Source: a virus
IMG/VR virus record: IMGVR_UViG_3300047323_000694
Span: 34,045 to 98,044 of that record
Strand: one strand, 5' to 3'
Length of the DNA stretch: 64,000 bases
Shown: in pieces, positions 3,972 to 35,885 of the stretch
Layout: every line of letters starts with the position of its first letter
Numbering within the stretch: position 1 is the stretch's first letter
Notes under the pieces: generated by a model
What the model was told of the DNA's origin: nothing
What the model saw: only the letters and a program-made list of their open reading frames with translations
Databases searched by the model: none
Made by a program: the position numbers and the translations under genes

Positions 3972-4185
3972 CGGTCAATACTCACATAACTCTATGATTT
4001 AATTGAAATACATAGGTATTCGAGCAAGCCAAATAATACGTTTTATTGTGGTTACGCAAACGAAAACACGCGGTCTCCAGCGCAGGTTTTGCGCAAGCTT
4101 GCGCCCCGCCCCCGGCGTCCTGCCGACATTCAAAACCATACCCTTTCATCACCTGACACTAGTCATCCATTCATCATCTCGATTA

Positions 4186-4201
4186 CTGTATATCCAAACA
4201 G
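4186..4201 (+). promoter_or_regulatory. LexA (SOS) box
   Basis: CTGTATATCCAAACAG = CTG-N10-CAG, 15 bp upstream of ORF 4217. Confidence 0.8.
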
Positions 4202-4216
4202 TATCGGATAATCCAC

Positions 4217-4573
4217 ATGTGCATCGACTACGACGCCGAGAACTGGCTCGGCAATCCGACCCGGGAAGAAATGCTCGAGCACCATAACAAGCTGATCGAG
4301 GCAGAGAACGAACTCCTGCGCCAGGAGGTTGACCGGTACCGGAAGAACCAGGCCAAGCTGATCGACATGGTTTCGGCATTGACGATCGAACGTGATCGGT
4401 TGGGCAAGGATCTGGAAACCACAAAAACACGCTTGTCTGAAACCAGCAGCCAGAGCTATGAAAGGATGCGGGAGATCAGCGAGCTACAGCGCGTCGTATC
4501 ACAGCGGGATGCGATCATGCGTCATTACGGAGTGCCTGAGGTCCTTTTCGGGTCGCCGCGCACTGAATCATAA
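4217..4573 (+). CDS. SOS-regulated small coiled-coil protein
   Basis: 118 aa with heptad pattern; LexA box directly upstream. Confidence 0.7.
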   Translation: MCIDYDAENWLGNPTREEMLEHHNKLIEAENELLRQEVDRYRKNQAKLIDMVSALTIERDRLGKDLETTKTRLSETSSQSYERMREISELQRVVSQRDAIMRHYGVPEVLFGSPRTES

Positions 4574-5058
4574 GCCGCCTCACACGCCAGCCCAGCTATT
4601 CGGGAAGAATCAGCGATTGCTGCCAGTTCCCGATTTCTTTGGACAGATTTGTCGAGCAGTCCGGCGAGCAGATCTGCGGAAGTGTCCCTTGGCGCGCAGC
4701 TGGTGCCAGAGCTGGAATTGCTGCGGGCGCGACCGGTGGCGAGTAGTTGCTCGACTTGCTTGCGCAGCCCGTCAGCAGCAGTAGAGGCAGTAGCAGCAGT
4801 AGCGCGGGCCTGATCGAGTCGTTTCGTTGCATCGGTCTGTACCTCTTCCATCTGGGATTGGCGGGATTGTTCGAGGGCGCGGGCGACTTCGGTGGCCTTG
4901 AGCGTTGCCGCGGTATCGGCCTTGTCGCGGTCTGACCACTTCGCCTGCCACCGGGCATCAGTGACGGTCACGCCGTGGTGATAGGCGCCGTAGAGAATCC
5001 CGGCGATGGACAGCAGGATCAGTAGCGCCGCCCCGGCTTTGGCATAGAGGGTGCTCAT
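4525..5058 (-). CDS. i-spanin (Rz-like, DUF2514-type)
   Basis: N-terminal TM helix, Ala-rich coiled coil, C-terminal GLACEAAYD; follows the endolysin. Confidence 0.85.
   Translation of the reverse strand: MSTLYAKAGAALLILLSIAGILYGAYHHGVTVTDARWQAKWSDRDKADTAATLKATEVARALEQSRQSQMEEVQTDATKRLDQARATAATASTAADGLRKQVEQLLATGRARSNSSSGTSCAPRDTSADLLAGLLDKSVQRNRELAAIADSSRIAGLACEAAYDSVRGDPKRTSGTP
4596..4832 (-). CDS. o-spanin (Rz1-like lipoprotein) nested in Rz
   Basis: MQRNDSIRPALLLLLPLLLLTG|C lipobox, Pro-rich, embedded out of frame in the i-spanin gene. Confidence 0.8.
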   Translation of the reverse strand: MQRNDSIRPALLLLLPLLLLTGCASKSSNYSPPVAPAAIPALAPAARQGTLPQICSPDCSTNLSKEIGNWQQSLILPE

Positions 5059-5660
5059 GCCAGCACCTTGAGCGCCTGCGAATACAGCGCCTGCCGGTCA
5101 GCGAGACCATTTGTGCCGCCGTTGATTCGCTTGGTGATGCCGATCAGATCCCCGGCGTCGGCCAGCTTGTTCAGCCCATTGATCGACGAGAACCATGCTG
5201 CTGACATCGCGGCATTCGCCGGCTGCTCGATCAATTCAGGGTGCGCGACCAGATCCAGGCCTAGGGCATCGCCGCATTCCTTGTAGTTCGACTTCCCGGT
5301 GATCTGGATCAGGCCGCGACCGCGATAGGTCCAGCCGTCACCCAGCGCCGTGTTGCCCATGCGGGCGGCGTAGACCACGTTCGCGATGCGCTCAGGCTGC
5401 CGGGCGAACTGCGCAGCCAACCCAGCATCAAACCGGGCGGGCCACGTCGCCACCAACGCATCGGCGCTGTAGTTCAGGTTTTCGACCAGTCGGGTCAGCT
5501 GGGCCGACTCATGGCCGACCTGCGCGATGAATGCCGCGATACGCAGTCGTGTGATGATCTGGTACTTGCCCATGGCCGTATTCAGCACAGGCGTGAAAGC
5601 TGCCGCCACCTTCGCCGAGTTCGGCAGGATCGCGACAAGCTGGGACTGGGTGATTGGCAT
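5055..5660 (-). CDS. Endolysin, glycoside hydrolase family 19
   Basis: FIAQVGHES, ENLNYS, YRGRGLIQITG, TKRINGG motifs; likely start MPITQ at 5660. Confidence 0.92.
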   Translation of the reverse strand: MPITQSQLVAILPNSAKVAAAFTPVLNTAMGKYQIITRLRIAAFIAQVGHESAQLTRLVENLNYSADALVATWPARFDAGLAAQFARQPERIANVVYAARMGNTALGDGWTYRGRGLIQITGKSNYKECGDALGLDLVAHPELIEQPANAAMSAAWFSSINGLNKLADAGDLIGITKRINGGTNGLADRQALYSQALKVLA

Positions 5661-5678
5661 TCCACTTTCCTCAAGACG

Positions 5679-5703
5679 AAAAAAAGCCCGCTCAAGGCAG
5701 GCT
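5679..5703 (-). terminator. Rho-independent terminator upstream of the endolysin
   Basis: Minus strand AGCCTGC-CTTGA-GCGGGCT followed by a T run. Confidence 0.65.
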
Positions 5704-5727
5704 CTGTGGCTGTATCGGTTTGGCAAG

Positions 5728-6291
5728 CTATGTCGCTGGCTGAACCACTGCCGAGGTTTCGTTGGTGTAGGGCTCAGGCTGTACCGGCCACGCCGGGGCG
5801 CTTGGCCATGTCGCTTGAGTCGATACACGGCCCAGCTTCACGTTGTAGCTGTTCCACGACTTGAGCTGGGCTTTGCGCACCGGCAATTCTGCGATTTCAG
5901 CCGCAGACGGTTCGATGTAGTCCTCGTCGTCAGGGTCTTGCTGGTTGATCAGGTAGTCGAGGGTGTTGACTCGGCCTTGTAGGGCGGTGACTTGGGCGTT
6001 TGCTTGGCGGCTCAAGGCGTTCAGCTTGTCGGTATTGACCTCAAGCCATTGAGCGCTAGTGGCAGGAATAATGACCCAAGCCTGGTAAGCATGACCATCC
6101 ACAATACGAACTGCCCCAGCAGCGTAGGTGTCTGGTGCGACTACAGTCGGTCGCGGATCCTCTTCTAGCACTGCGAAACCATACTCAAGCAAGGCCTCAT
6201 TTCCGACATCAGGAGGAAATCCGGTTAAAGGGAATAACTCCTGAAGCTGAATAGCATTGATAACTTCTAAGGTAGCCAAATTTACGTACAT
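5728..6291 (-). CDS. Tail fibre assembly / tail-associated protein
   Basis: C-terminal WNSYNVKLGRV..WPSAPAWP resembles tail-fibre chaperones; follows the RBP gene. Confidence 0.65.
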   Translation of the reverse strand: MYVNLATLEVINAIQLQELFPLTGFPPDVGNEALLEYGFAVLEEDPRPTVVAPDTYAAGAVRIVDGHAYQAWVIIPATSAQWLEVNTDKLNALSRQANAQVTALQGRVNTLDYLINQQDPDDEDYIEPSAAEIAELPVRKAQLKSWNSYNVKLGRVSTQATWPSAPAWPVQPEPYTNETSAVVQPAT

Positions 6292-6299
6292 GTTTTCAC

Positions 6300-7346
6300 C
6301 TAAGTCTTAGCTATTCTGGATGAAACGTTACCAGCAGAATATGAAGCGTCTGTAGATAAGTTTAAATAGAACGGCCCGCACTGCGCGCCGCCACCGTAAG
6401 AGCCACCGAAATAAAGAACTGCCGAAGCTCCGGCTGAATAACGATCGCCGGTAGCCCCGTCTGTTTGAGTGGCACTAGTTGAAGAGGGAACAAATGACGT
6501 CCTCAGGTCGTATCCAGTACCGGTAGCCGCCGAAAATGCGGTTGGGTAGCCGCTTACGGGAAGCGTAAGCGACGTACCAACATAGCTGGAATTCCCTGAG
6601 TTATCCCAAATCATGCAGCCCATACTTGAGCTAGAGCTTAAACCGTCTGCCATCTGCCAAACATTCGCCCAAAGTCCGACTATCCCCCTCCAAGTTGCTT
6701 GGGCGACGGTAGCGTTATTTACTTGTAGCGGCCCAAAATCAGCTGTCGAGTTTCCTTGCCCTAATACATTTTGCGCGTCAGGCGTCCCCAACTCTACAAT
6801 AAGAAGCAGTTGTATGGCTGAAATCTGATGATAGCTCCATATGGTAAACCCAGTGACAGACCCGGTGTTTCTAGCGCTAGCTCTGCTGCGCATTGTTGCG
6901 AAATCTAGATCAGCTATAGGGTATAGCCCGGGAAGCGAGCCAAGTTTTGACCCGTCTGCCACTGCCTGATATTTGCCAACCCATATCTGCGCTATAGGTG
7001 ATCCTCCGCTCCAGAATGCGGGATGCCTGACAAATCCGGGAGATGCGGTATCAGATATCCACCAAACCCTCTTTCCTGTGTATGGGCCTGACGTCAAAGT
7101 ATCGCCCTTAACAAAGAAGGCAGGAATTTTAATCATCGCCTGGCTATCTATCGTCTCCCCAATAATGGCGCTATATATAGGATGGCTAGCGAAATACCCT
7201 GCGCTCGGCGAAACGGCGTTCCCTAGCAAGTCGACTCTCTGCCAGACACCAGCGCCGCCGCTGCCTGCCGATATGAAAGCTATGCCGATTATCGGGGATG
7301 TAGTCGCCGCCGACGAAATCCTTCGCAACGCCGCAGCCAGCCTCAT
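6300..7346 (-). CDS. Receptor-binding protein with C-type-lectin (FGE-sulfatase/Mtd-like) fold
   Basis: KIPAF, HPAF, VGKYQA, GLWANVWQMADG and terminal GGSYGGGAQCGPFYL..S...NVSSRIAK; start MRLAAAL at 7346 overlaps the upstream stop. Confidence 0.65.
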   Translation of the reverse strand: MRLAAALRRISSAATTSPIIGIAFISAGSGGAGVWQRVDLLGNAVSPSAGYFASHPIYSAIIGETIDSQAMIKIPAFFVKGDTLTSGPYTGKRVWWISDTASPGFVRHPAFWSGGSPIAQIWVGKYQAVADGSKLGSLPGLYPIADLDFATMRSRASARNTGSVTGFTIWSYHQISAIQLLLIVELGTPDAQNVLGQGNSTADFGPLQVNNATVAQATWRGIVGLWANVWQMADGLSSSSSMGCMIWDNSGNSSYVGTSLTLPVSGYPTAFSAATGTGYDLRTSFVPSSTSATQTDGATGDRYSAGASAVLYFGGSYGGGAQCGPFYLNLSTDASYSAGNVSSRIAKT

Positions 7347-13422: not shown

Positions 13423-15822
13423 TTATGGCGTGACAGTGGTAGGCGGCAGCTCGACAGGCTTCGGCTTTGCTGGCTGCGGCGTCTGATCTGTCGTCAGGTA
13501 AGCGACTGGGCCGACCGTGCGGATTTGGTTCTGCGCATCTTCGCCCAAGGCAGCGAACCACTTCCGGTAGGCCAGGGTGCGCATGAGCTGCGCCTCCCGC
13601 GCTTTCATCCGGCCGATCTGGGCACCATCGGTGCTGGTTGCCGTGTAGATGGCGTCACGGAATTTTGGGCTGGCGATCAGTTTCTCTGCAGCTTCTTTTA
13701 TAGGCGTCTTCTCTTTCGAGAACGCAGTAGACAGCACGCCGATGGTCCCGGCGCCAGGGAAGCCCAGTGTACTGGTGACGCCCTCGGCCGCCCCAGCCTT
13801 CTTGCTGACATCCCAAACCCTCGACAGCAGCCCGCCCTCGTCGGCGTATTGCTCGAGCAGATTTATCGAGTTGAGGCGCCCCGTGGTGATTCGCTCTTTC
13901 GAGGCCTCTCGCATACCGCGCGCCACCGTAGCAATGTCGTCCAGTGTCTTTGCCGCGTCGGCGGGCAGGTATTGGGTCAGTCGATTCTTCGCTGCGCCGT
14001 TTCGGCTGAGGCTGTCGTACCAGTCCACAAAGCCTGGTGCGCTGAGTTGCTGCTGCGCACCGCTCCGCTTCGTAAAAGCATTGTTCAGGGCAGTCAATAC
14101 TGCTTCCTGACGCAGATTGGCCGGAATCAGCGTAACCAGCTTGTCGAAATCCTTGAAGTTTCCGCTACCCAGTTTCTCCACGGCAGATCCGAAGGTCGAA
14201 CTGATAGACCCAGACATGTCCTTGCCGATAGCCTGGATCAATCCGTCTTCCAGGCCCTTGCGCTGGGCGACGACCGATTTTGCCGCGGTAAAGATGTTCC
14301 CGACACCGGCGGCGTCCGCGACCGCCTGCTGGTCCTTGCTGAGATTGGCGTATAGAGCATCCAGGGTGCGGGAACTGGAGTTGGCGAACGGCCCGCGACC
14401 CTTGTACCCATCGCCGACGGACTTGCGAACCGAGTCCAGCGCTGCGTAGGTCGGGTGCGTAGTGATTGTCTGGACTGTGCCGGGAATCAGCGGGTTCGGA
14501 ACAGTCTCGACCTTGGGCGCGAGGATATTGAGGGCCTTTCGCTCGTCGGCCGACAGCAGCGGAGCCCCGCCGAAGTCTGCCGATCGCCCCCGGATGTAGC
14601 TGATCGTTGAGTCGGCCGGCGCCTGGGTCTGCGCCGGGATTGCCTTCGACACATTCGAATAAAGGTCTTCAGCCTGCTTGTTCAGCCCTTGAATAGTGCT
14701 TTGGCTTTGAGTTCTGAACTTGTCGGAGAATGCGCTTTTGTCCAACGACCCGCCGTATTGCACAATGAGATCGTCGGCTTTCTGTGCCAGAGCTGCGTAG
14801 GACTCCTTCTGCTGGGCGTTCAGTACGCTACCCGGCACCGAAGCCAATGCCTGCTCAATCTCGCGATAGGACTGGCTGCGTGAATACTGTGACGGGATCA
14901 GCTTCTCTTTCAGCCCTAGCCGGTCAGCAGCGCCAAGGATTTCTTGGTTTGGCGCAACTTCTTCTGCCAGGTCGGCGACTTTCTGTGCCTGCGTGCGCGG
15001 AGTGGCTTGGGCAGCATCCGCTGCCGCCCTGACCGCGCCAGCCTGCTCAGATGCCACGTCGGCCGTGCCGCCAGCAGCATTCGCAGCGGCTTGATCGTTG
15101 CGGGCCGTTTGGATGGCTGCCTGCTGAGTCGTTAGCTCGGCCTCGGTCTTGTTCGCCGCGCTCCGAGTGAGCGCCCCGGCGCCGCCGATTACTGCCGGGA
15201 GCGCGCCACCCAGGACGCCACCAATCGCTGCGCCCTTTGCAGCCTCAGGTATACGCTCAAGCGGGTCGCCCTCGGCGGAACCAAAGCCGTAAGCCGCTCC
15301 ATATCCCGCGCCATACAGCGCGCCCCGGCCGACATTTGCTGCGAGACTCGCCCCGGCCGTGGTGCCGCCGGTGAGCACGGCTGGCGCAATACCGCCGACC
15401 AGGCCGCCCGCAATTGTCGCAACCGGGTGCTGATCCTGCGCTGCCTTCAGTAGGCCGCGTTGTTCATCGACGTTCTTGTCGTAGCGATCGCCGAATGACT
15501 CGCTACTGTCGCCAGTGCCGAAGACTGGCTGCAGTGCCGCCTTGGCGCCACCGACAAGCTCGTCAGAAAGGCCGAACGTGAGGCCGTCGCCAGCCCCGCG
15601 CAGGAATGCTTCGCCGGTGCCGACATCTGGCGGCTTAACGTAATTGTAGGCTTGCGGCCCGCTTGCCGGAGCAGTGGCGGCGCCCGAAGGCGCTGGCGCT
15701 ATAACCGGGTCTGCGTCCCATACATTGGCGACTTCGGGGGCGGCGGCCTGCGGCAGCGGTGCTGGTGGCGCAACTGCTGGTGTTGGCGACTGAACAACCG
15801 GATCCTCATCCCACGCGGCCAT
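13423..15822 (-). CDS. Internal virion / DNA ejection protein (large)
   Basis: 799 aa; Gly/Ala-rich hydrophobic segment (GAGDGLTFGLSDELVG), helical; podovirus ejection-gene position. Confidence 0.72.
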   Translation of the reverse strand: MAAWDEDPVVQSPTPAVAPPAPLPQAAAPEVANVWDADPVIAPAPSGAATAPASGPQAYNYVKPPDVGTGEAFLRGAGDGLTFGLSDELVGGAKAALQPVFGTGDSSESFGDRYDKNVDEQRGLLKAAQDQHPVATIAGGLVGGIAPAVLTGGTTAGASLAANVGRGALYGAGYGAAYGFGSAEGDPLERIPEAAKGAAIGGVLGGALPAVIGGAGALTRSAANKTEAELTTQQAAIQTARNDQAAANAAGGTADVASEQAGAVRAAADAAQATPRTQAQKVADLAEEVAPNQEILGAADRLGLKEKLIPSQYSRSQSYREIEQALASVPGSVLNAQQKESYAALAQKADDLIVQYGGSLDKSAFSDKFRTQSQSTIQGLNKQAEDLYSNVSKAIPAQTQAPADSTISYIRGRSADFGGAPLLSADERKALNILAPKVETVPNPLIPGTVQTITTHPTYAALDSVRKSVGDGYKGRGPFANSSSRTLDALYANLSKDQQAVADAAGVGNIFTAAKSVVAQRKGLEDGLIQAIGKDMSGSISSTFGSAVEKLGSGNFKDFDKLVTLIPANLRQEAVLTALNNAFTKRSGAQQQLSAPGFVDWYDSLSRNGAAKNRLTQYLPADAAKTLDDIATVARGMREASKERITTGRLNSINLLEQYADEGGLLSRVWDVSKKAGAAEGVTSTLGFPGAGTIGVLSTAFSKEKTPIKEAAEKLIASPKFRDAIYTATSTDGAQIGRMKAREAQLMRTLAYRKWFAALGEDAQNQIRTVGPVAYLTTDQTPQPAKPKPVELPPTTVTP

Positions 15823-17801
15823 TAGCGTTTACTCCTGTGGACGCCATTCGGGTCGATGTACTCGGCGCCAGAGGGGAGTGCCGCATAGCCAGCGGCGTCG
15901 ACAATCTGTACAGGACCGCTAATAACGGGTGGAGTTTGGGGCTGCGCAGCGGGCGCCTGGCTCTGGGCTTGCTGGGTCGCCTGTGGTTTTCCTGCGTTCG
16001 GATTGGCTTTTTCGTACTCGGTGAGCTTTCCAGAAAGTCTTTCTGCGATATCTGAAAGCCTCTGTTTCGTAGCGCCTACAGAGCCGTTGATACCTTTATC
16101 GCCAATATTTAGACCCGACCCCACCTGCGACAAAAACGTGATGTCTTTATCGGTAAGGACGCCGCTCATAAGTTTCAAATTGTCGACTGTTAACAGGGTT
16201 TGGAGTCTTTGAGCTTTGTTGACTAGATCTTGAGATTCGTCGCGCAATGTCGGAACCTTTGACCGAACTGTGCCGGTTACATCGTCCAGGCTTTTAGAGC
16301 CCGCGATATCACCAACCAGCTTCAACGCTTCTTTGCTCAGGTCATAAGCACCGGCTTTTTGTGTAGTCAAAGCCTGAGCCGCGTTCGCCGCATCGGTTTT
16401 GCGCTTATCGATCTCAAGCTGGTTGAGTTGCCGTTGCTGCCCGGCGGCGCCCGTGCCATTGGCCTCACCGGTCAGTTTTGCGGTCTCGGCTTCGTTTTTG
16501 CCGATCTGAGACTTGGCAAGGCCAGGGGCTGTATCTGTCTCAGCCCTTGTTTTCCCTGCCTCAGCATTGGTTTTGCCGATTTGCGCCTGCTGCACTTGTC
16601 TGGCGAGCGCCTTCGAGCCGTCTGGGTCGATGACAGAATTGTATGCAGCCTTAGCCTGTGGCGTAGCATCAGGCGCGGCGGCGGCAACCCGAAGGTCTTC
16701 GACGTTCTGAGCCTGTCGCGCCTGAGCTGCTGCGGAACGCTGGGCCTGTCCAGAGGTGATCCCGTTTTGGGCATTCAGAATTGCTTGCTGGTCGCTCTGA
16801 CGCCCCTGCTGATCAAGAGCTGCCTGCGCCAGGTCATTCCGTGTAATCGGCTGGCTGCTGTCCCTGATCGTGTTGACACTTGAATCAATGCTTGCCTGCT
16901 GCCGAGCAATGGCGAGTGCGTCCTGCTCTTTGTACCCCTGCCGAAGATCAGCCGCCTTCTGGAATCGATCCATGGCCAGCTTGGCATCGCCTTGGTTGAA
17001 TTGCGAAAACGAGCCCACGCCATCACCCATGTTCTTAGCCGACCCCAGCGCCGCGAACGACGGGCCGGAACCAGCAGCATTCTCGATGTTCGCCTGATCG
17101 GTCGGGGACAGGGTTTTAGGGTCGTTTACAGGCGCCATTCCGTAAGCGCTCCGCAGGTCGGTTTTGTCATTCGAGAACGACGCCGTGCCATCCGGATTGA
17201 GCTTGCCTACGATGCTTGCCCGGCCATTCGACGTATCGGCAGTGCCGACTACCGGCCGATAAGCATCACCAAGAGAGGTAACGGGTGGCTGGACATTGGC
17301 TTGGGCCGTCGTATCGATGCTGCGCAAGTCCGGGGCTGTCGGCGCTGGCGTCGCTACCGCTGGCGGTGCTTCAGCAATTGGCGCTGGCTGCTGCTGGGCC
17401 GCGAGCTGTGGATTTTGCAGGAGGCTGCGGCCGATATTGGCTCCAGCCTCCGCAAAACTGGTAGGCGTCTGAGCAGGTAGGCCAGTGCTTTGCGTGTATG
17501 CCTGTGACAGGTCCGGAGGTGATGCTGCCGGAGGTGATGCTGCAATTCCAGCGGGCAGTGCCGATGAAAGGCTGGGCATGCTTGTTGGCGTGGGTGTTGG
17601 CGCTGATACCGGATCTGGCGTAGAAGCTGGCGCAGTCTGCGGCGCGACCTGGCTTAGACTAGTAAGCTGCTGTGACGCCTTGGCGATCGGGCCAGTGTTC
17701 GTGATATCGAACGAATTTGGCCTCAACCCCATTTTGGCCGCGCGCTCGGCGGGCGTCATATAAGTGCTCGCCATCTCACCAATCAAATCACCGACAGCCA
17801 T
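15822..17801 (-). CDS. Internal virion / DNA ejection protein
   Basis: 659 aa, Ala/Gln-rich; LTVDNLKLMSGVLTDKDI resembles P22 gp20-like proteins; C-terminal ALPSGAEYIDPNG. Confidence 0.7.
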   Translation of the reverse strand: MAVGDLIGEMASTYMTPAERAAKMGLRPNSFDITNTGPIAKASQQLTSLSQVAPQTAPASTPDPVSAPTPTPTSMPSLSSALPAGIAASPPAASPPDLSQAYTQSTGLPAQTPTSFAEAGANIGRSLLQNPQLAAQQQPAPIAEAPPAVATPAPTAPDLRSIDTTAQANVQPPVTSLGDAYRPVVGTADTSNGRASIVGKLNPDGTASFSNDKTDLRSAYGMAPVNDPKTLSPTDQANIENAAGSGPSFAALGSAKNMGDGVGSFSQFNQGDAKLAMDRFQKAADLRQGYKEQDALAIARQQASIDSSVNTIRDSSQPITRNDLAQAALDQQGRQSDQQAILNAQNGITSGQAQRSAAAQARQAQNVEDLRVAAAAPDATPQAKAAYNSVIDPDGSKALARQVQQAQIGKTNAEAGKTRAETDTAPGLAKSQIGKNEAETAKLTGEANGTGAAGQQRQLNQLEIDKRKTDAANAAQALTTQKAGAYDLSKEALKLVGDIAGSKSLDDVTGTVRSKVPTLRDESQDLVNKAQRLQTLLTVDNLKLMSGVLTDKDITFLSQVGSGLNIGDKGINGSVGATKQRLSDIAERLSGKLTEYEKANPNAGKPQATQQAQSQAPAAQPQTPPVISGPVQIVDAAGYAALPSGAEYIDPNGVHRSKR

Positions 17802-18142: not shown

Positions 18143-18168
18143 AAAAGAAAAGGCACCCGAAGGTGCCT
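18143..18168 (-). terminator. Terminator closing the ant-RAMP-RNA operon
   Basis: Minus strand AGGCACC-TTCG-GGTGCCT-TTTCTTTT. Confidence 0.88.
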
Positions 18169-18175
18169 ATTCAAT

Positions 18176-18307
18176 GCCGTTTACGGCCCATACCTAAACA
18201 TGCCGAAGCAAACCAGACCTTGCCACGTCACGCCGTACCAGAGCGAACCAGGCCAGACCAAATGATGCTTTCGCACCGCAATGCCGACTGTCGGCAATCG
18301 GCATTAC
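18176..18307 (-). ncRNA. Candidate guide RNA unit 2: structured leader, 14 G(G)Y-NN pentamers, 3' hairpin
   Basis: GTAATGCCGATTG-CCGA-CAGTCGGCATTGC stem, GGTGC-GAAA-GCATC hairpin, then GGTCT GGCCT GGTTC GCTCT GGTAC GGCGT GACGT GGCAA GGTCT GGTTT GCTTC GGCAT GTTTA GGTAT (18259 to 18190), then GG-GCCG-TAAA-CGGC. Confidence 0.75.
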
Positions 18308-18439
18308 GCTGTTTTCAGCCCATATCCTACCAAGCCCAGCCAAGTCTCAGCTTGCCGAACCATGCCACTCCAAGCCGTGGCCTGCCACATGGCGCTTTCG
18401 CACCGCAATGCCTTCTCGTACGAAAAGGCATGACGCTGC
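18308..18439 (-). ncRNA. Candidate guide RNA unit 1: structured leader, 13 G(G)Y-NN pentamers, 3' hairpin
   Basis: GTCATGCCTTTTC-GTAC-GAGAAGGCATTGC stem, GGTGC-GAAA-GCGCC hairpin, then GGCAG GCCAC GGCTT GGAGT GGCAT GGTTC GGCAA GCTGA GACTT GGCTG GGCTT GGTAG GATAT (18386 to 18322), then GG-GCTG-AAAA-CAGC. Confidence 0.75.
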
Positions 18440-18904
18440 CTACTCCGCCCTGAGTGTTTTGGATGCCATACCTTGCAGCTGCGTAAGTTTTGCAACGGCG
18501 TCAACGTTTCTCCGGCGCTCACCATCGGACAGCTCGCTCAATCTGAGGTTGCGCAGCTTCTGTCCTGCTGAGCTGAAAATCTTCTTCGCTCCACGCTGGA
18601 AGTCGGCGACCGCGATATCAGTCTGCTCATTAGGAGGAACCCAGCGGTAGCCCTTGCCCCTGATGGATTGCAGGCAGATCTGATGATCTCGCAGCAACTC
18701 GACCTTGAATGCCTCGACGTTGGCCAGCCATTCAAACTGACGCTCTCGAAACTTGTCGGCGGTGAGCTGCTGGTCTTCGGCTAAGCCTGGCATACCGAAT
18801 CTCACCTCCAGCCAGTCATGCCCGACGATATCGCCATACTTGAACTCAGCGATAAAATCCTGCACGGCCTGGCGCCATAATGGATAACGAGCCACCTCAC
18901 TCAT
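18440..18904 (-). CDS. Accessory protein of the RAMP/pentamer-RNA module (possible winged helix)
   Basis: 154 aa from MSEVARY; start overlaps the RAMP gene stop; LQSIRGKGYRWV resembles a wHTH wing. Confidence 0.7.
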   Translation of the reverse strand: MSEVARYPLWRQAVQDFIAEFKYGDIVGHDWLEVRFGMPGLAEDQQLTADKFRERQFEWLANVEAFKVELLRDHQICLQSIRGKGYRWVPPNEQTDIAVADFQRGAKKIFSSAGQKLRNLRLSELSDGERRRNVDAVAKLTQLQGMASKTLRAE

Positions 18905-19472
18905 AAGCCACCTCGAAGCGCCCGAAGCGCGGGCGATACTCACAGACACCAATCAGCTTTCCAGAGTCTGAGATAGCCTTCTTTGCCTCTTTCAAGTCCA
19001 GCACATCAGGATTGACCACAACCTCAAGCGTCACAGCCCAGTCGAGAAAGATCGGGCGATAGCGCATGATCTTCGCCTGCCCTACTTTCACGCCCCGGCA
19101 GTCAACGAAGCGAGTGTCTTCCCAGAGCTTAGCGGGAGTGTCTGGGCCGTCGAACTCAAGCTTCGCCTTGTCCGTCATTACCATGGCGCCGCGCTTCCAG
19201 TGGACGCCAAGCTTTTGGAGTTTCGCCCCCGCCCAGAATGTCGCATCGAAGTTTTGGCCCGGCACGAAGAAACCTGTTTTCTCGTCGAAATACGCACCTG
19301 AGACGAATTCGGATCGAGCAATTGCCAAATGATCGTCGTCGGTTTTTTTGCGTTTTCCGGTCAGCTCCTTGTGAGCTTTGGTCTCTGGCAATAGAGGGTT
19401 TGCCAGCCGGTCGCTGTGCATCATGAGTGGAGAGGTGCCCGTGATGCGGATGTTCAACATTTCCATGCTCAT
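18897..19472 (-). CDS. RAMP / Cas7(Csm3)-like RNA-binding protein
   Basis: N-terminal IRITGTSPLMMH, FFVPGQNF (cf. IPGSSlKG), putative thumb hairpin VKVGQAKIMRYRP, C-terminal Gly-loop GKLIGVCEYRPRFGRFEV. Confidence 0.7.
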   Translation of the reverse strand: MSMEMLNIRITGTSPLMMHSDRLANPLLPETKAHKELTGKRKKTDDDHLAIARSEFVSGAYFDEKTGFFVPGQNFDATFWAGAKLQKLGVHWKRGAMVMTDKAKLEFDGPDTPAKLWEDTRFVDCRGVKVGQAKIMRYRPIFLDWAVTLEVVVNPDVLDLKEAKKAISDSGKLIGVCEYRPRFGRFEVAYE

Positions 19473-20356
19473 GCTGCACTCCCCATGGCGTAACCGCCAT
19501 GCATGCCAAAACTGGTGTATTGGGCGTAGATCTCTTCGCGGCGTTTATCGAGATTGAAGAATGCGGAGTGCCCGCCCTGCAACTGATCGAAAAATGCCAT
19601 CAGCGGGCGGGAGTCCAGCGCACGCGCTGCGTGCAGCATGTCGCGCTTGTATTTGTGCATGGCTGAAAAGCAAGACATCAGCAAGTACAGGTGCTGGGTC
19701 TCAACGCGGTCTAGATGGATTCCTTCCTTTTTGCCTGGACCCCGGATGTATTCGCCCTCCTTCACCTCGTACGCTGCGATGAAGTTTCTGGCGGAGTCGA
19801 GTTGGTCGGCAGGAATGTCAGCCGCCGAACGCACACCGAACGCTGCATGAGTTTGCGACCAGAGCTTTGCAGTGGCGCGGCGCTGAATGGCGAGAGGTAG
19901 GTTGGTCACCTTGCCCTTGATCACCGCGCCGAGCATATGAAAGCCGTCGGTGCCGATGGTCTGACTCATAATGGTGGCGGCTTCCGAAGGAGCAACCTGA
20001 TGGAGTCGCTTCTCGCACTCAATAAAGTAGCGGCGAGCCTGACGCCCCTTGTCGTTGTTTTCGACCATGGAAAGCTCTTTTGCCATATCCAGCGTGAGGT
20101 GATAGTCAATGCGATTGCTGCCGCCCCGCTTTGCTTCATTTTTTTGTGAAGCAATCACATAGTCAGAGCCTTCTTCAAAGCCGAACTTCACAATCTTCAT
20201 TGTCAGCCAGTCAGAGAACTGGCGGCGGCTTTCAAGAAAAGCATGAAGGGTGCGAGCATCGACGAGCCCTTCTTCTCGTCCGGAAATTGCGCCCCGGAGG
20301 ATTGGTACAATTGAGCTAACGTTGTTTTCTGTACCATTTACGTTAATATTACTCAT
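19469..20356 (-). CDS. ant: Phage antirepressor (AntA/AntB N-terminus plus P22 Ant-like C-terminus)
   Basis: VDARTLHAFL..RRQFSDW, DYHLTLDMAKELSMVE...GRQARRYFIECEK; likely start MSNIN at 20356. Confidence 0.85.
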   Translation of the reverse strand: MSNINVNGTENNVSSIVPILRGAISGREEGLVDARTLHAFLESRRQFSDWLTMKIVKFGFEEGSDYVIASQKNEAKRGGSNRIDYHLTLDMAKELSMVENNDKGRQARRYFIECEKRLHQVAPSEAATIMSQTIGTDGFHMLGAVIKGKVTNLPLAIQRRATAKLWSQTHAAFGVRSAADIPADQLDSARNFIAAYEVKEGEYIRGPGKKEGIHLDRVETQHLYLLMSCFSAMHKYKRDMLHAARALDSRPLMAFFDQLQGGHSAFFNLDKRREEIYAQYTSFGMHGGYAMGSAA

Positions 20357-20428
20357 GACGATTTCTTCCTCGAAGCTGATCTCGTTTCCTGAAGCCCTGG
20401 CGTCTCGTAAACGCTGGGGCTTTTTCGT
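20350..20428 (+). ncRNA. Putative sar-like antisense RNA covering the ant ribosome-binding site
   Basis: Plus-strand hairpin AGCCCTGGCGT-N7-ACGCTGGGGCT-TTTT between arc and ant, with TAATAT at 20344-20349; same layout as P22 sar. Confidence 0.45.
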
Positions 20429-20430
20429 TT

Positions 20431-20604
20431 TCAGGCCGTTGCCTGCTTGCTCTGCATTTCCCGCCATCTCAGACCCTCCTCAATTAACAGGCCAAGTTCC
20501 GCATTCAAGCTGCGGCGGTTTGCTTGGGCCTGCGTGCGCGCCCTCTCTCTGAGCTCTTGCTCTATACGCAAGCTGTAGGCGTTTGCCTGATGCCTGTCAT
20601 TCAT
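20431..20604 (-). CDS. arc: Arc-like ribbon-helix-helix repressor (57 aa; not in the ORF track)
   Basis: Manual translation MNDRHQANAYSLRIEQELRERARTQAQANRRSLNAELGLLIEEGL...; upstream of ant. Confidence 0.8.
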   Translation of the reverse strand: MNDRHQANAYSLRIEQELRERARTQAQANRRSLNAELGLLIEEGLRWREMQSKQATA

Positions 20605-20738
20605 GGCGCTTCCCTTTCGTGTGGATTCATAATGCAGTCAAACGATATCGCCACCCCATTGTGCCGTCAAGTGGATTCTTGATTCTTTTTGAGGCCACGC
20701 CCAAACTCTCATTTCATATCACCGTATCGTGGAAAATC

Positions 20739-21148: not shown

Positions 21149-22225
21149 CTATGCATCCTCAGTCGCCTTGACGAAGTCCTGCCAGAACCCAGTCGGCTCA
21201 GGTGGCGGGCCGCCGATGCCAAGCCCTCTATAAGCGATTGGTAGGCCATCGGTCTCATATAGCCCTTGGTTTCGCTTGTTGATCCGCGTCGTGACGACCC
21301 CAGAATTGAAGTCCAATACCGCCAACAACCCACGGTTATGCAACAGCACATGACTGTCATCAACCATGCCCACCAGGGTGTAGTCGGCGGCGAAGCTGCC
21401 TGTGACGTTATCATCCAGCTGTACTTGGAAGTCTCGAATATTGAGCACATTGGATGTTAGGTTTCGCACCGCGAGCGTGGTGTCGCCATACCGGTATACA
21501 AGCTGTTCGCCATCGCCGCTGAACCCAGCATTTTTGGACTTGTCAGTGTTGCTGCCTGAAGAGTCAGATGACATCAACAGAGTGGCGTCGACGTCGAATG
21601 TAGTGATGTTCTGTCTCAGGTTTGCCGGGGATAGAGCCATGAATCGCGCATCCGGGCTTGCTGTCACGCCAGCATAGGGCCCGTACGACCACGCCGTCTG
21701 CCCGAGGTCGATATAGGTAGATTGCGCCCCAGTACTGGCATTCAGCCGAAATATCCCTGTGGGGCTCCCGCTATTTTGATCGCGGGTTGAGATAACAATT
21801 AGATCTGCCACCCCGGTTACGCTGAAATCAGTGATCGGATCGGACGATAGAGAAATATACGACGGCGTAGTGTAGGGAGGTGGAATGCTAATCAGAACTC
21901 CGGGGGTGCCGAAAACGTAAGCGTAAAAATTACCCTCAGGGCCAAATCCGTACTGCCCGGCACTAATAAATCCGGTGATTGGCGTTGTTCGAATATTCCC
22001 GCTTGCCGTGTCGCAAAAATAGATAAAGCTGTCGTTAACTCCCTTGACCGCCAGGGTCGACCCATCTCTCGACAAGGTGCCATTGCCAAAGTTGTATGCC
22101 TGACTCTGCAGGGCGATCTGCGCGGTCTGCGCCCCACTAACCGAGTCGAACAGGAAAAGCGAGTAGACGTAATCATCATCAGGGGTCGCCCGAGTGCCAG
22201 CGTCAAGATAGCCAATAATCGCCAT
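21149..22225 (-). CDS. Virion-associated beta-propeller-like protein
   Basis: Repeated SRDGSTLAV / SPDARFMAL / FSGDGEQLVY blades; end of a late block. Confidence 0.55.
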   Translation of the reverse strand: MAIIGYLDAGTRATPDDDYVYSLFLFDSVSGAQTAQIALQSQAYNFGNGTLSRDGSTLAVKGVNDSFIYFCDTASGNIRTTPITGFISAGQYGFGPEGNFYAYVFGTPGVLISIPPPYTTPSYISLSSDPITDFSVTGVADLIVISTRDQNSGSPTGIFRLNASTGAQSTYIDLGQTAWSYGPYAGVTASPDARFMALSPANLRQNITTFDVDATLLMSSDSSGSNTDKSKNAGFSGDGEQLVYRYGDTTLAVRNLTSNVLNIRDFQVQLDDNVTGSFAADYTLVGMVDDSHVLLHNRGLLAVLDFNSGVVTTRINKRNQGLYETDGLPIAYRGLGIGGPPPEPTGFWQDFVKATEDA

Positions 22226-33708: not shown

Positions 33709-35885
33709 GCTGGCGCTCCTTCAATGCGTGGGGTTTCAATGCCTGCGTCAAGGCCGACGGCCGGGCTGGCTGGGGTTAGAGGATTCGTGTTGTGCGGGAT
33801 ATCAGGCGAGGCCAGGACCGTGCCCACGTATTGCGGGACGATTGGCGCGGCATTGTGATCTTGGAAGCCGGCGGACAGCAGGAGCGCATCGGCCAGATTC
33901 GAGGTGGCCGGCGTCGCGGCAATAACCCCTGCGGTCTGGATTGCGCTGTACATCGCTGTGACGGACTTCGAAACAGTGTCCGCCCGGGTGTCGTCGGTCT
34001 GTGCGTTGAGAAGATCCAGTGATGCCTTGGATTTGGCGGCATCCACCTGTGAACGACCTGCGTCGGCCTGAGCCTTCAGTGTCTGAGCGGAAATAAGCTC
34101 AGCCTTGGCCTGCAGCGTTGGATCGACCGGCGCGGCGTGCTGCTGATCCTGCATCGCCTTGACGATTTCCTGCTTATTCGCAAGGTTCGAGTATTGGATG
34201 ATGAACGGCCACGGGATGTTAGCGCCCTTCTCGTTCAGCTCGATGGCTTGCAGGAACTGGCTGTTCTCGAACGTGATCTGTGCCGGGGCCTCGGTGACGA
34301 TGACGTCATATTCGCCGATGGTCAGGTCATTCAGGATGCGCTGGTCAGGCTGCGGCCAGTTCAGGGGGATTTCGGTCGTCGCTTCCTGGCCGGAAGGATC
34401 GGACTCGGTGATGCGCATGATGCGCGGCTGATCGTAATAGGCCTGGATCAGCTCAAGGATGCGCGTGGCGACCATCGCCCGTGTTCTGGCAAGGTTATCC
34501 AGGGGGACGGCAAGCTGCTGCTGAGCGGCGAACTGGCGAGTTTGGATGGCAATGCCGGAGACTTCGTTGCTCTGGTTGCCGGACATGGCCTGGTTTACGC
34601 CGGTTGCCGACTCCAGCAGTGCGGAGGCTCTATCAATGATGCGATCGAATCCGGTCGGCACCTGGTTGGGCTGGATCTTCTGAGGCCTGTCGAGTTGCTC
34701 GGTGCCCTTCTTGATAACTATGTGCAGCCCAGTCTCGGCGCCGCGATTAGCCAACTCATCGTCTGCCATGTTCACAAGCGTGCCTGCAACCGTGACCCAG
34801 CCGCTATTGGCAGTAGTGTTGATGATGTGCAGGAACTGGCTCATCGACTTGTTCAGGAGTTGTTGCGGCCCAATCGCGTCATCCACCAGGCCACGGGTTT
34901 TACCGCGGCGAAACGTGGGGAAGAACGGAACCACGGTGAAATGGTTGAACGGGGACCATTCGTCGTGCAGAACCTTGTCCTTGGTCGTGATCAGCCAGCG
35001 CACGCGGCGAATCTTGCGCTTCTGCTTGATGCCACCCGCCGCTACCATCTCTTCGATGGCCTTCGGGTTGATATCTTCGACCAGCCGGATATCACCGGTT
35101 GCGGTGATGATTACCTCGGCAAGGTCCATCTGCCAGAACTGACGATCGATGACGCGATAGCGCTTGGTTGACTTGTCATCAGGATCATCGCCATAAAATT
35201 CCGGGTACAGCGAGTCTGATTCGCCAAAGGTAGCGCGCTCGATATCATCAAGAACTGGCAAGAAGGTGTCGCCGGAATCGCTTTCGTCATCGATCGCCCT
35301 GGCGGCCTTACTGCCGTGCATGGCCTCGATTTCGATAGCTGTCAGCATCCGACTGGTAGTGACATCAGCCCAATCGTCCGGGTCGTAGCTGTTGGCGTCC
35401 GGGTCGGGGATCACGTCCATCGGGTCGAGAATGTCAATTTTGACCTCGCCCAGGATCGTATCCTCGTAGCTCATGCGGATATCGAAGTAGCCGCGCTGCT
35501 GGATCACGCCATCGCTGAACACCTGGGTTTCTTTGAAGTGAAGCTGATTGTTGTCGGCAATCTGCATGGCGAGCTTCGACAGCGTGGTAGCGGTCTCGGC
35601 ATCAGCGGCGCCGGAGCGCGGGCGAAACCCGATATCCATGCGGTTACCGATCTGATACCCAACTGCAGCGTTGATCTTGTTCTTGATCTGGTTGAACTCG
35701 AGCGCCGGCCGACCAGCTTCGGTGAGGATGGCAACGTCAGCCGCTTTCCACTGGCAGCCGCCGCCCAGGTAGTAGTCCTCACACTCCCGCGCTGTATCGA
35801 CGTAGTTCCTGTGGCCACGATTCAGCCCGTACTCGTACCGAGCCCAGTTGTCCGTCGCTTTTTGCTTGTCGGAGGCATCAGCCAT
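33705..35885 (-). CDS. Portal protein (P22/N4-like)
   Basis: ~726 aa; YY.G.QW....L...GRP.L.FN.I, DPD....D..D.. and long C-terminal helical barrel. Confidence 0.88.
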   Translation of the reverse strand: MADASDKQKATDNWARYEYGLNRGHRNYVDTARECEDYYLGGGCQWKAADVAILTEAGRPALEFNQIKNKINAAVGYQIGNRMDIGFRPRSGAADAETATTLSKLAMQIADNNQLHFKETQVFSDGVIQQRGYFDIRMSYEDTILGEVKIDILDPMDVIPDPDANSYDPDDWADVTTSRMLTAIEIEAMHGSKAARAIDDESDSGDTFLPVLDDIERATFGESDSLYPEFYGDDPDDKSTKRYRVIDRQFWQMDLAEVIITATGDIRLVEDINPKAIEEMVAAGGIKQKRKIRRVRWLITTKDKVLHDEWSPFNHFTVVPFFPTFRRGKTRGLVDDAIGPQQLLNKSMSQFLHIINTTANSGWVTVAGTLVNMADDELANRGAETGLHIVIKKGTEQLDRPQKIQPNQVPTGFDRIIDRASALLESATGVNQAMSGNQSNEVSGIAIQTRQFAAQQQLAVPLDNLARTRAMVATRILELIQAYYDQPRIMRITESDPSGQEATTEIPLNWPQPDQRILNDLTIGEYDVIVTEAPAQITFENSQFLQAIELNEKGANIPWPFIIQYSNLANKQEIVKAMQDQQHAAPVDPTLQAKAELISAQTLKAQADAGRSQVDAAKSKASLDLLNAQTDDTRADTVSKSVTAMYSAIQTAGVIAATPATSNLADALLLSAGFQDHNAAPIVPQYVGTVLASPDIPHNTNPLTPASPAVGLDAGIETPRIEGAPA

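Follow-up and report, generated by a model that had tools for sequence, protein, structure and literature searches.

A Very Probable Type II VIPR Locus in a Rhizosphere Virus Record, Coupled to an arc/ant Cassette and Predicted to Be a Target of Related Phages

Introduction

The question raised by the DNA analyzed in this work is whether a short minus-strand locus, in which two small coupled genes are followed by two runs of regularly spaced pentamers, represents an RNA-guided system of viral origin and, if so, of which kind. The locus (positions 18143–19472) lies in a stretch of 64,000 nucleotides, hereafter the window, which corresponds to positions 34,045 to 98,044 of the IMG/VR virus record IMGVR_UViG_3300047323_000694. 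A first-pass annotation, made from the sequence alone, had described a 191-aa open reading frame (ORF), a coupled 154-aa ORF, two non-coding units and a terminator, all of which are indeed present on the minus strand; it had also put forward the name "VIPR", and the literature bears this name out.

VIPR (Viral Interference Programmable Repeat) systems are related to CRISPR and were described in 2026, mainly in phages and prophages; they consist of a stand-alone ancestral RAMP protein (Vipr), an accessory gene (vap) and vrRNAs composed of 9–16 YNNGG repeats with a structured 3' tail (10.64898/2026.04.26.720920). Each repeat of the vrRNA is covered by one Vipr protomer; the NN letters base-pair with target DNA in the pattern NN-x-NN (the "1-nt skip rule"), and transcription is repressed upon binding (2026 VIPR preprints). 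Type II VIPR comprises phage SUSP1 and a clade of Pseudomonas fulva prophages, and carries vap1 (2026 VIPR preprints). The formation of the ribonucleoprotein (RNP), DNA binding and silencing have been demonstrated for SUSP1 and the P. fulva prophage, where the tracts were sequenced as Vipr-bound RNAs (10.64898/2026.04.26.720920). In this work a vrRNA is recognized by its tandem YNNGG/GGY-NN units, 9–16 being typical and at least 4 being necessary for calling.

All the sequence-level features that define type II VIPR are found at the locus, and we consider it very probable that a temperate phage or prophage carries here a type II VIPR system working in the way proposed below.

Results and Discussion

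The Vipr Protein

The 191-aa product of vipr (18897–19472, minus strand) can be assigned to the stand-alone, Cas7-like RAMP proteins on the basis of homology, fold and contact residues. A phmmer search against all the PDB sequences gave a sole match, 36pp_D "SUSP1 Vipr protein" (E 5.5e-44, residues 3–188), with which the protein shares 41% identity. It also falls into phrog_4652 (E 1e-76), a family annotated as of unknown function, and the Pfam search gave no model for either Vipr or Vap. The tblastn search of the phages deposited in GenBank retrieved 134 records, the closest being Pseudomonas phage Medea1 (89% identity); about 120 of them are Felix O1-type (Ounavirinae) coliphages, including SUSP2 (40.9% identity, E 5e-43). 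In the genome collection, the best match of this Pseudomonas-type Vipr is a locus (L003; homologous loci are referred to by L numbers) with 85% identity on a contig titled as a metagenome-assembled genome of Pelagibacterium sp.; this label may be due to faulty binning or else to a phage group with a broader range of hosts.

The AlphaFold2 model of Vipr, built from an alignment of 36 homologues (predicted local distance difference test score, pLDDT, 94.8; predicted template modeling score, pTM, 0.87), exhibits a long beta-hairpin at residues 123–142, that is, the thumb bearing R139, and a C-terminal GVCEYRPRFGRF loop. The best PDB neighbors of the model in Foldseek are type VII Cas7 and type III-A Csm3 (E ~1e-5, probability 1.0, template modeling score ~0.5, identity 9–16%). 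The predicted structure confirms the minimal RAMP fold, with a single RRM core, a thumb and a glycine-rich loop. The first-pass annotation had proposed a RAMP/Cas7-like protein from the motifs ITGTSPL, VPGQNF and GVCEYRPRFGRF; the three motifs are found in the protein, and the assignment is upheld both by the modeled fold and by the sequence homology with the characterized SUSP1 Vipr.

The same structural neighbors might suggest that the gene is a stray Cas7 gene, captured from a type III or type VII CRISPR-Cas system, and that the repeats lying next to it are unrelated. However, the identity with those neighbors is only 9–16%, against an E value of 5.5e-44 to the SUSP1 Vipr, and in about 100 loci GGY-NN tracts accompany the gene. 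Moreover, the array and the multi-subunit cas operon surrounding Cas7, by which the type III/VII systems are recognized, are both absent from the locus: Tandem Repeats Finder detected no repeat-spacer (CRISPR) array in the 64-kb window, and the neighbors of vipr are an arc-like gene, ant, the vap1 homologue and genes for unassigned proteins, with no cas1/cas2, nuclease or other cas gene at the locus (a gene-by-gene cas screen of the whole contig was not made). We therefore regard a captured fragment as extremely improbable. The absence of an array and of a nuclease, together with the arc/ant/vap1 neighborhood, is also in keeping with the earlier suggestion of a system devoid of CRISPR repeats, cas1/2 and nuclease that would repress rather than cleave, and it fits the repression-type (type II) VIPR. 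Vipr shares with Cas7 and Csm3 the RRM core, the thumb hairpin, the glycine-rich loop and the binding of one subunit per fixed guide interval; VIPR differs from them in the 5-nt rather than 6-nt period, in the three guide bases flipped out per unit, in the gapped reading of the target, and in having neither a repeat-spacer array nor adaptation genes nor a nuclease partner.

The residues contacting the guide are also retained. In the SUSP1 Vipr, H17 and D177 hold G1, R138 and W178 hold G2, and R179 holds Y3, while K33 touches the backbone next to the skipped target base and its alanine mutant loses silencing (10.64898/2026.04.26.720927). The alignment to 36pp makes H17, K33, R138, D177, W178 and R179 of SUSP1 equivalent to H19, K35, R139, E178, Y179 and R180, respectively, of the protein studied here; H19, R139 and R180 are invariant in the 36 homologues, and the D-to-E and W-to-Y replacements are conservative, the tyrosine being the state reported for the P. 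fulva Vipr.

The accessory gene, vap1-like (18440–18904, minus strand, 154 aa), follows directly. Its ATG overlaps the stop codon of vipr (ATGAGTGA), so that the two genes are translationally coupled. Its product is homologous to that of the gene located downstream of vipr in SUSP2, that is, vap1 (28% identity, E 2e-14), and belongs to phrog_5926 (E 3.5e-61). The AlphaFold2 model (pLDDT 89.3) consists of an N-terminal helix-strand-helix-helix-hairpin and two long C-terminal helices. Foldseek retrieved no match below E 0.06 for this model, and the weak rows above that value (E >=0.06) are nearly all winged-helix DNA-binding domains of the GntR, OmpR/PhoB, BirA and MarR types. A winged-helix reading of the model, although weak, would agree with the "predicted DNA binding protein" that the VIPR preprint reports as the product of vap1.

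Guide Tracts and Constant RNA Module

Downstream of vap1, a non-coding stretch of about 265 nt (18176–18439, minus strand) holds both RNA units. The first tract, vrRNA-A (18322–18388), contains 13 GGY-NN units (18322–18386) with one NN in front, while vrRNA-B (18190–18259) contains 14. G occupies the first position in 27/27 units and the second in 19/27, a pyrimidine is found at the third in 26/27, exact GGC/GGT triplets occur in 18, and positions 4–5 hold 11 different dinucleotides; guide A, for instance, reads AG AC TT GT AT TC AA GA TT TG TT AG AT. This recount coincides exactly with the pentamer counts of the first-pass annotation (13 and 14 units, G1, Y3 and 18 exact triplets). A GGYNN caller applied to the entire 98,044-bp contig, both strands included, returned these two tracts alone, whereas in forty dinucleotide-Markov surrogates of the contig the calls averaged 0.2 per surrogate, none being longer than 6 units. 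The tracts are real and far from what chance would produce.

The comparison with other loci strengthens this picture. Twenty-four genomic and 80 viral loci encoding relatives of Vipr were drawn; same-strand GGY-NN tracts, one to seven per locus, accompany vipr in about 100 of the 106 homologous loci, truncated stretches being among the five without a called tract. A lack of tracts beside the homologues, which would have spoken against the initial proposal, is thereby removed. The tracts lie after vap1 in the relatives with at least 68% identity and before vipr in the clade with about 58%. In L074–L106, whose Vipr is ~58% identical, the guide arrays are thus placed upstream of vipr rather than downstream of vap, and L101 has four further tracts on the opposite strand (1393–1749). 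The 106 loci contain 192 distinct guides, in which GGY and the constant module are conserved and NN is hypervariable.

The constant module begins with ...TATGGGC and comprises a 4-bp hairpin (GCUG-NAAA-CAGC), a stem of 10–12 bp and a short GNRA-type hairpin; the sequence of the long stem varies from copy to copy. Every tract ends with ...ATGGGC, leading into the first hairpin, hp1 (GCYG-NAAA-CRGC), which is followed by a second one, either hp2 or a terminator. At this locus, a leader copy of the module (18391–18439; CAGCGT, the long covarying stem and the GNRA hairpin) stands ahead of tract A, its degenerate first hairpin overlapping the vap1 stop codon, and is recognizable in the sequence, in the minimum free energy (MFE) fold and in the covariation of its homologues. 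Another copy (18264–18321), drawn from RNAalifold, separates the two tracts and is formed by hp1 GCUG-AAAA-CAGC (18308–18321), the long stem hp2 (18278–18307) and the GAAA hairpin hp3 (18264–18277). Tract B is followed by an hp1 copy, GCCG-UAAA-CGGC (18176–18189), and then by an intrinsic terminator (the two together spanning 18143–18189), supported by the terminator scan and by the MFE fold and consisting of a 7-bp GC-rich hairpin (stem 18151–18168) with a T run to 18143. The same array ending is found in L027, L028, L030, L031 and L034. All these features lie on the minus strand.

An RNAalifold analysis of 47 homologous modules recovered the three hairpins with compensatory changes in 16/20 pairs, and the stems are rich in G-U pairs, which correspond to C-A mismatches on the other strand. 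Covariation and the abundance of G-U pairs together imply a structure that is under selection, exists as RNA and is read from the minus strand. The MFE fold contains all three elements noticed in the earlier reading (the long stem, the hairpin with the GAAA loop and that of 4 bp), and this covariation backs them. As for the two units of ~130 nt that it had delimited, both exist, but their boundaries have to be shifted. Indeed, vrRNAs are reported to carry their structured, invariable constant part at the 3' end, after the tract (10.64898/2026.04.26.720920); since the published order is tract and then tail, the small hairpin after a tract and the long stem following it would, by analogy, more likely form the 3' tail of the preceding vrRNA than a leader for the unit downstream. 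The GNRA hairpin may belong to the tail or be a processing signal, so that the module at 18264–18321 is probably the tail of vrRNA-A and/or a processing signal for vrRNA-B. Rfam holds no family matching the RNA units; the one row returned, Atu_C8 on the opposite strand, is at chance level (E 0.61).

It might be argued that the tracts function at the DNA level, for instance as repeated sites to which Vap, Arc or some other protein would bind, since short periodic repeats beside genes for DNA-binding proteins can be operators or iterons and since no RNA runs were among the sequencing runs matched by the stretch. This idea is hardly reconcilable with the data. The tracts are always co-oriented with vipr in the ~100 loci, the hairpins flanking them show compensatory changes and many G-U pairs, the latter being possible only in RNA of the minus strand, and an intrinsic terminator follows them; furthermore, only under the 1-nt-skip rule do the variable dinucleotides correspond to coding sequences in related phages (see below), and homologous tracts are the very RNAs sequenced in association with Vipr in SUSP1 and P. 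fulva (10.64898/2026.04.26.720920). We thus assign to the DNA-site explanation a negligible probability and treat the tracts as guide RNAs.

The closest relative, L027 (Vipr 99% identical), provides some insight into how the array changes. The NN letters of guide B are identical to those of the fourth and last vrRNA of L027; the two tracts differ at two positions only, both at the free pyrimidine of GGY, which randomly placed differences would produce in about 4% of cases. L027 lacks guide A and has four vrRNAs (4041–4470) against the two found here. Four guides against two, with the terminal one alone in common, suggest that arrays turn over by whole modules, and the gain and loss of tract-plus-module units presumably occurred via recombination between constant modules.

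The Target Code among Related Loci

The 1-nt skip rule was examined with 160 guides of 10–20 units in 105 loci, with the tracts masked, on both strands and with 0–3 wildcard bases between dinucleotides. At a threshold of at least 85% of informative positions, a skip of 1 gave 115 hits from 25 guides, against 3 with shuffled guides, whereas skips of 0, 2 and 3 gave 0, 0 and 4 hits (shuffled guides 2, 1 and 0, respectively). Perfect NN matches were found for a guide of L031 in L054 (22/22) and for the first guide of L029 in the tail assembly gene L of Medea1 (20/20). In an unmasked all-against-all guide scan, no guide had a hit in its own locus. These matches lend independent computational support to the idea that the 1-nt-skip code operates among the loci of this clade, that the RNAs act as guides, and that their prey would be sibling phages. 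The result concerns the loci of the clade and not guides A and B of the present locus.

Some regions recur among the matched sites. A hot spot in the tape-measure gene of L054 (5172–5224, within the ORF 4695–6569+) is matched by guides of six phages: L008 (32/36), L031 (22/22), L037 (19/20), L039 (28/32), L048 (19/20) and L065 (25/26). In Medea1 (L001), predicted target sites lie at 957–985 and 7274–7305, and its host-specificity gene J, a further hot spot, is matched at 19–20/22 by guides of L004, L005, L029 and L044.

A Proposed Mechanism and Its Relation to Known Systems

On this basis, the following model can be proposed. Minus-strand transcription would probably start upstream of the arc-like gene described below and proceed through ant, vipr and vap1 to the terminator lying after the second guide. 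Each vrRNA, whose ends we infer, would consist of 13–14 GGY-NN units plus a structured constant part. Each Vipr protomer would bind one unit, gripping GGY by means of the RRM sheet, the thumb and the G-loop and presenting NN; the NN letters of the filament would then pair with double-stranded DNA reading NN-x-NN-x, with one skipped base per unit, and an R-loop triplex would form, blocking the transcription of the bound gene with the assistance of Vap1. RNP formation, DNA binding and silencing are taken, for this locus, from the preprints on SUSP1 and the P. fulva prophage. The annotation's idea that one subunit binds each fixed triplet and displays the variable dinucleotide is the same as the account given by cryo-electron microscopy (10.64898/2026.04.26.720927).

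The comparison with SUSP1 (10.64898/2026.04.26.720920; structures in 10.64898/2026.04.26.720927; PDB 36pp) reveals, in addition to the equivalent contact residues, a vap1 homologue directly downstream of vipr, the absence of a nuclease, GGY-NN vrRNAs that end with ...TATGGG and are arrayed downstream of vap1, and a long stem before each tract. The differences concern the carrier, which is here temperate and of a soil/rhizosphere Pseudomonas type while SUSP1 is a lytic Felix O1-type coliphage, the lack here of a vrRNA upstream of vipr, the fusion of the locus to an arc/ant cassette, and the G-loop, which has E-Y in place of D-W. The P. fulva prophage clade (same preprints) shares with our locus the Pseudomonas prophage setting, the vipr + vap1 + downstream vrRNA array, and a tyrosine at the position stacking on G2 (Y176 there), and no pseudoknot fiducial has been reported for it. 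Its guides are directed against other prophages and also against other VIPR systems, a pattern that the cross-matching among the relatives of the window reproduces. When the reported residues are compared, the G-loop reads I-G-V-C-E-Y-R here, while P. fulva is reported with C171, V173 and D175; these differences suggest that the window probably falls outside the clade of >90% identity defined by those authors.

Genetic Context and Carrier

The carrier is a temperate phage or prophage, probably of Pseudomonas, from a rhizosphere metagenome. Its viral or proviral nature is supported by the classification of the record as a virus, by the 31.8 kb that align with provirus G403 and by the phage genes flanking the locus. 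Upstream of vipr lies ant (19469–20467, minus strand), an AntA/Rha-type antirepressor gene (Pfam AntA PF08346, E 3.5e-24; PHROG anti-repressor Ant, E 1e-44), whose stop codon overlaps the vipr start codon (ATGA). The unit opens with an arc-like gene (20431–20604, minus strand), coding for a ribbon-helix-helix regulator of 57 aa (PHROG Arc-like families, E 3.5e-6 to 2.7e-8), and a second Arc/Mnt-like gene, divergent to it, is also present upstream. A consensus scan yielded a sigma-70-like promoter candidate, TTGACG-17-TATCGT (20642–20670, minus strand), ahead of the arc-ant-vipr-vap-vrRNA unit. Such a scan is weak alone, since it yielded 2 sites where 1.6 would be expected in the region; the candidate lies immediately before the arc-like gene, as an operon start would. 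The gene content resembles that of the immI region of phage P22 (mnt, arc, ant), with a divergent Arc/Mnt-like pair, then the arc-like gene and then ant; the difference is that here ant is translationally coupled to vipr-vap1 and the guide array.

The arc-ant-vipr-vap order is also found in Medea1, between tail genes K and I, while the L054 cassette abuts a tape-measure gene. The three different settings, that is, by ant in an immI-like region, among tail genes and next to a tape-measure gene, indicate that the cassette moves between phage backbones.

Other features of the region may be mentioned. On the plus strand, a strong terminator-like hairpin with a 13-bp stem and a T run (20391–20423) lies inside the overlap of the arc-like gene and ant, antisense to both genes. 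The flanking large ORFs, at 15822–17801 (minus strand, 659 aa, Ala/Gln/Pro-rich) and 21149–22225 (minus strand, 358 aa), gave no match to PHROGs at a threshold of E 0.001, and the 659-aa protein is unrelated to the tape-measure protein found on that side of the cassette in L054.

The Carrier Phage as Predicted Prey of Its Relatives

To what extent might this phage itself be a target? The contig was scanned with the 192 guides of its relatives; the shuffled-guide null had a median of 0.70 and a 95th percentile of 0.78, with one value of 0.90. Two hits stand above the rest: one on the coding strand of vipr (20/22), given by the first vrRNA of L054, and one in ant (19/20), given by the first vrRNA of L056. 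The first vrRNA of L058 matches, at 19/24, the same vipr site as the L054 guide. The predicted landing site of the L054 and L058 guides (19351–19382, minus strand) covers codons 31–41 of vipr (TKAHKELTGKR), that of the L056 guide in ant lies at 19929–19957 on the plus strand, both having been located by NN match, and at both sites the skipped base is the third (wobble) position of the codon. Taken singly, each hit is suggestive, and not proof, of a guide target in this phage. The joint case is stronger, because the two hits share a 2-kb cassette and agree with the codon phase, and because the vipr of about 55 other loci is matched by the L054 guide at 19–21/22.

The loci carrying these guides score lower on their own genes. 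The vipr of L054 matches the L054 guide at 17/22, and that of L058 matches the L058 guide at 15/24 and the L054 guide at 17/22; L056 is also without a good self-match (13/20). In the vipr of both L054 and L058, codon 35 is CGC (Arg) instead of AAG/AAA (Lys), and codon 39 is AGC. The K35R replacement alters both guide-read letters of the codon and yet keeps the positive charge of a residue equivalent to K33 of SUSP1; it is this recoding that brings the carriers' own vipr down to 15–17 matches. Guides against the vipr of rivals, with a lower self-match, have already been described for the SUSP1 family (2026 VIPR preprints), and the predicted targeting by L054 and L058 is the same strategy, in another clade.

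These observations lead us to a broader scenario, offered tentatively and as one that we judge possible rather than likely: arc, ant, vipr, vap1 and the guides might form a single early-expressed cassette in an immI-like switch, firing an antirepressor and an RNA-guided silencer jointly at resident prophages, while rivals might aim guides at vipr codons 31–41 and at ant, shielding their own copy by K35R.

The Prey of Guides A and B

A competing phage, or another mobile element, would be the expected natural prey of guides A and B. No target with an NN match of at least 80% was found for guide A or B in the contig, the 106 loci, 20 related viral records, 401 Pseudomonas genomes and the sub-pattern scans of viral and metagenome contigs. 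In the 98-kb contig, the best matches of guides A and B (19/28 and 20/30) equal those of shuffled guides, in agreement with the absence of self-matching guides reported in the VIPR preprint. In the 106 homologous loci, the best values were 18/28 and 22/30, and in five whole related proviruses 18/26 and 19/28. Allowing up to 3 mismatches, no hits were obtained in those five proviruses (guide B only), in fifteen further related viral records (both guides) or in the 401 Pseudomonas species genomes (controls also 0), a set centered on the Pseudomonas genome reached via L004 and holding one genome per species. Exact sub-patterns gave, in viral contigs, either 0 hits or chance hits in low-GC marine contigs (21/28 overall), and exact 11-NN sub-patterns gave 0 hits for each guide in metagenome contigs.

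Two candidates were rejected. A 9-dinucleotide sub-pattern of guide B occurs in 41 low-GC marine viral contigs (L107–L147) always within one conserved motif of coding sequence (…ACxGTxGTxAAxCTxTTxTCxATxTA CCA); outside it the guide does not match (21/28), which points to chance and to a widely sampled gene. The pairing of guide B with the constant module of rival arrays (19–20/30) is likewise at chance level.

This lack of a match is one of four points that weigh against a working type II VIPR system. The second is that 8 of the 27 units lack the second G (GCC, GCT, GAC, GAT, GTT and GGA-type units), which could weaken the binding of the protomers, although the VIPR preprint reports internal degeneracy of the units as frequent. 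The third is that the constant part is made up of three simple hairpins and not of the pseudoknot tail of SUSP1; the fourth is that the search of sequencing runs with the stretch found rhizosphere metagenome DNA runs, one of which probably gave rise to the record, and no RNA runs.

Might the locus, then, be decayed or idle, with intact genes but with guides that are relics, bearing degenerate units and lacking any living target? The imperfect units, the blank obtained in every collection searched and the reduction to 2 guides, against 4 in the 99%-identical L027, could be read in this way. Nevertheless, both ORFs are full length with intact contact residues, the constant module and the terminator are intact, and guide B has kept all its NN letters with respect to L027, changing at the free Y only; in addition, rivals still appear to aim guides at this vipr. 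A blank is also often expected: prophage prey are strain-specific and the collection holds one genome per species, so that the absence of a match is uninformative. For these reasons we consider an idle locus improbable and a working type II VIPR system very probable.

Conclusions

The locus is a well-resolved soil/rhizosphere addition to a class of RNA-guided systems known for just a few months, and it leaves unchanged the picture of what VIPR is. What it brings is modestly new: a constant part of three hairpins, the coupling with arc and ant, and the predicted targeting of vipr and ant by relatives, with a recoded allele in those that target vipr. The 1-nt-skip code is recoverable from metagenomic loci alone, and the cultured phage Medea1 could be a laboratory test bed for VIPR targeting. 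Lastly, the vipr-aimed guides and the charge-preserving K-to-R recoding of the targeted codon in the phages that carry them provide a testable case of an arms race.

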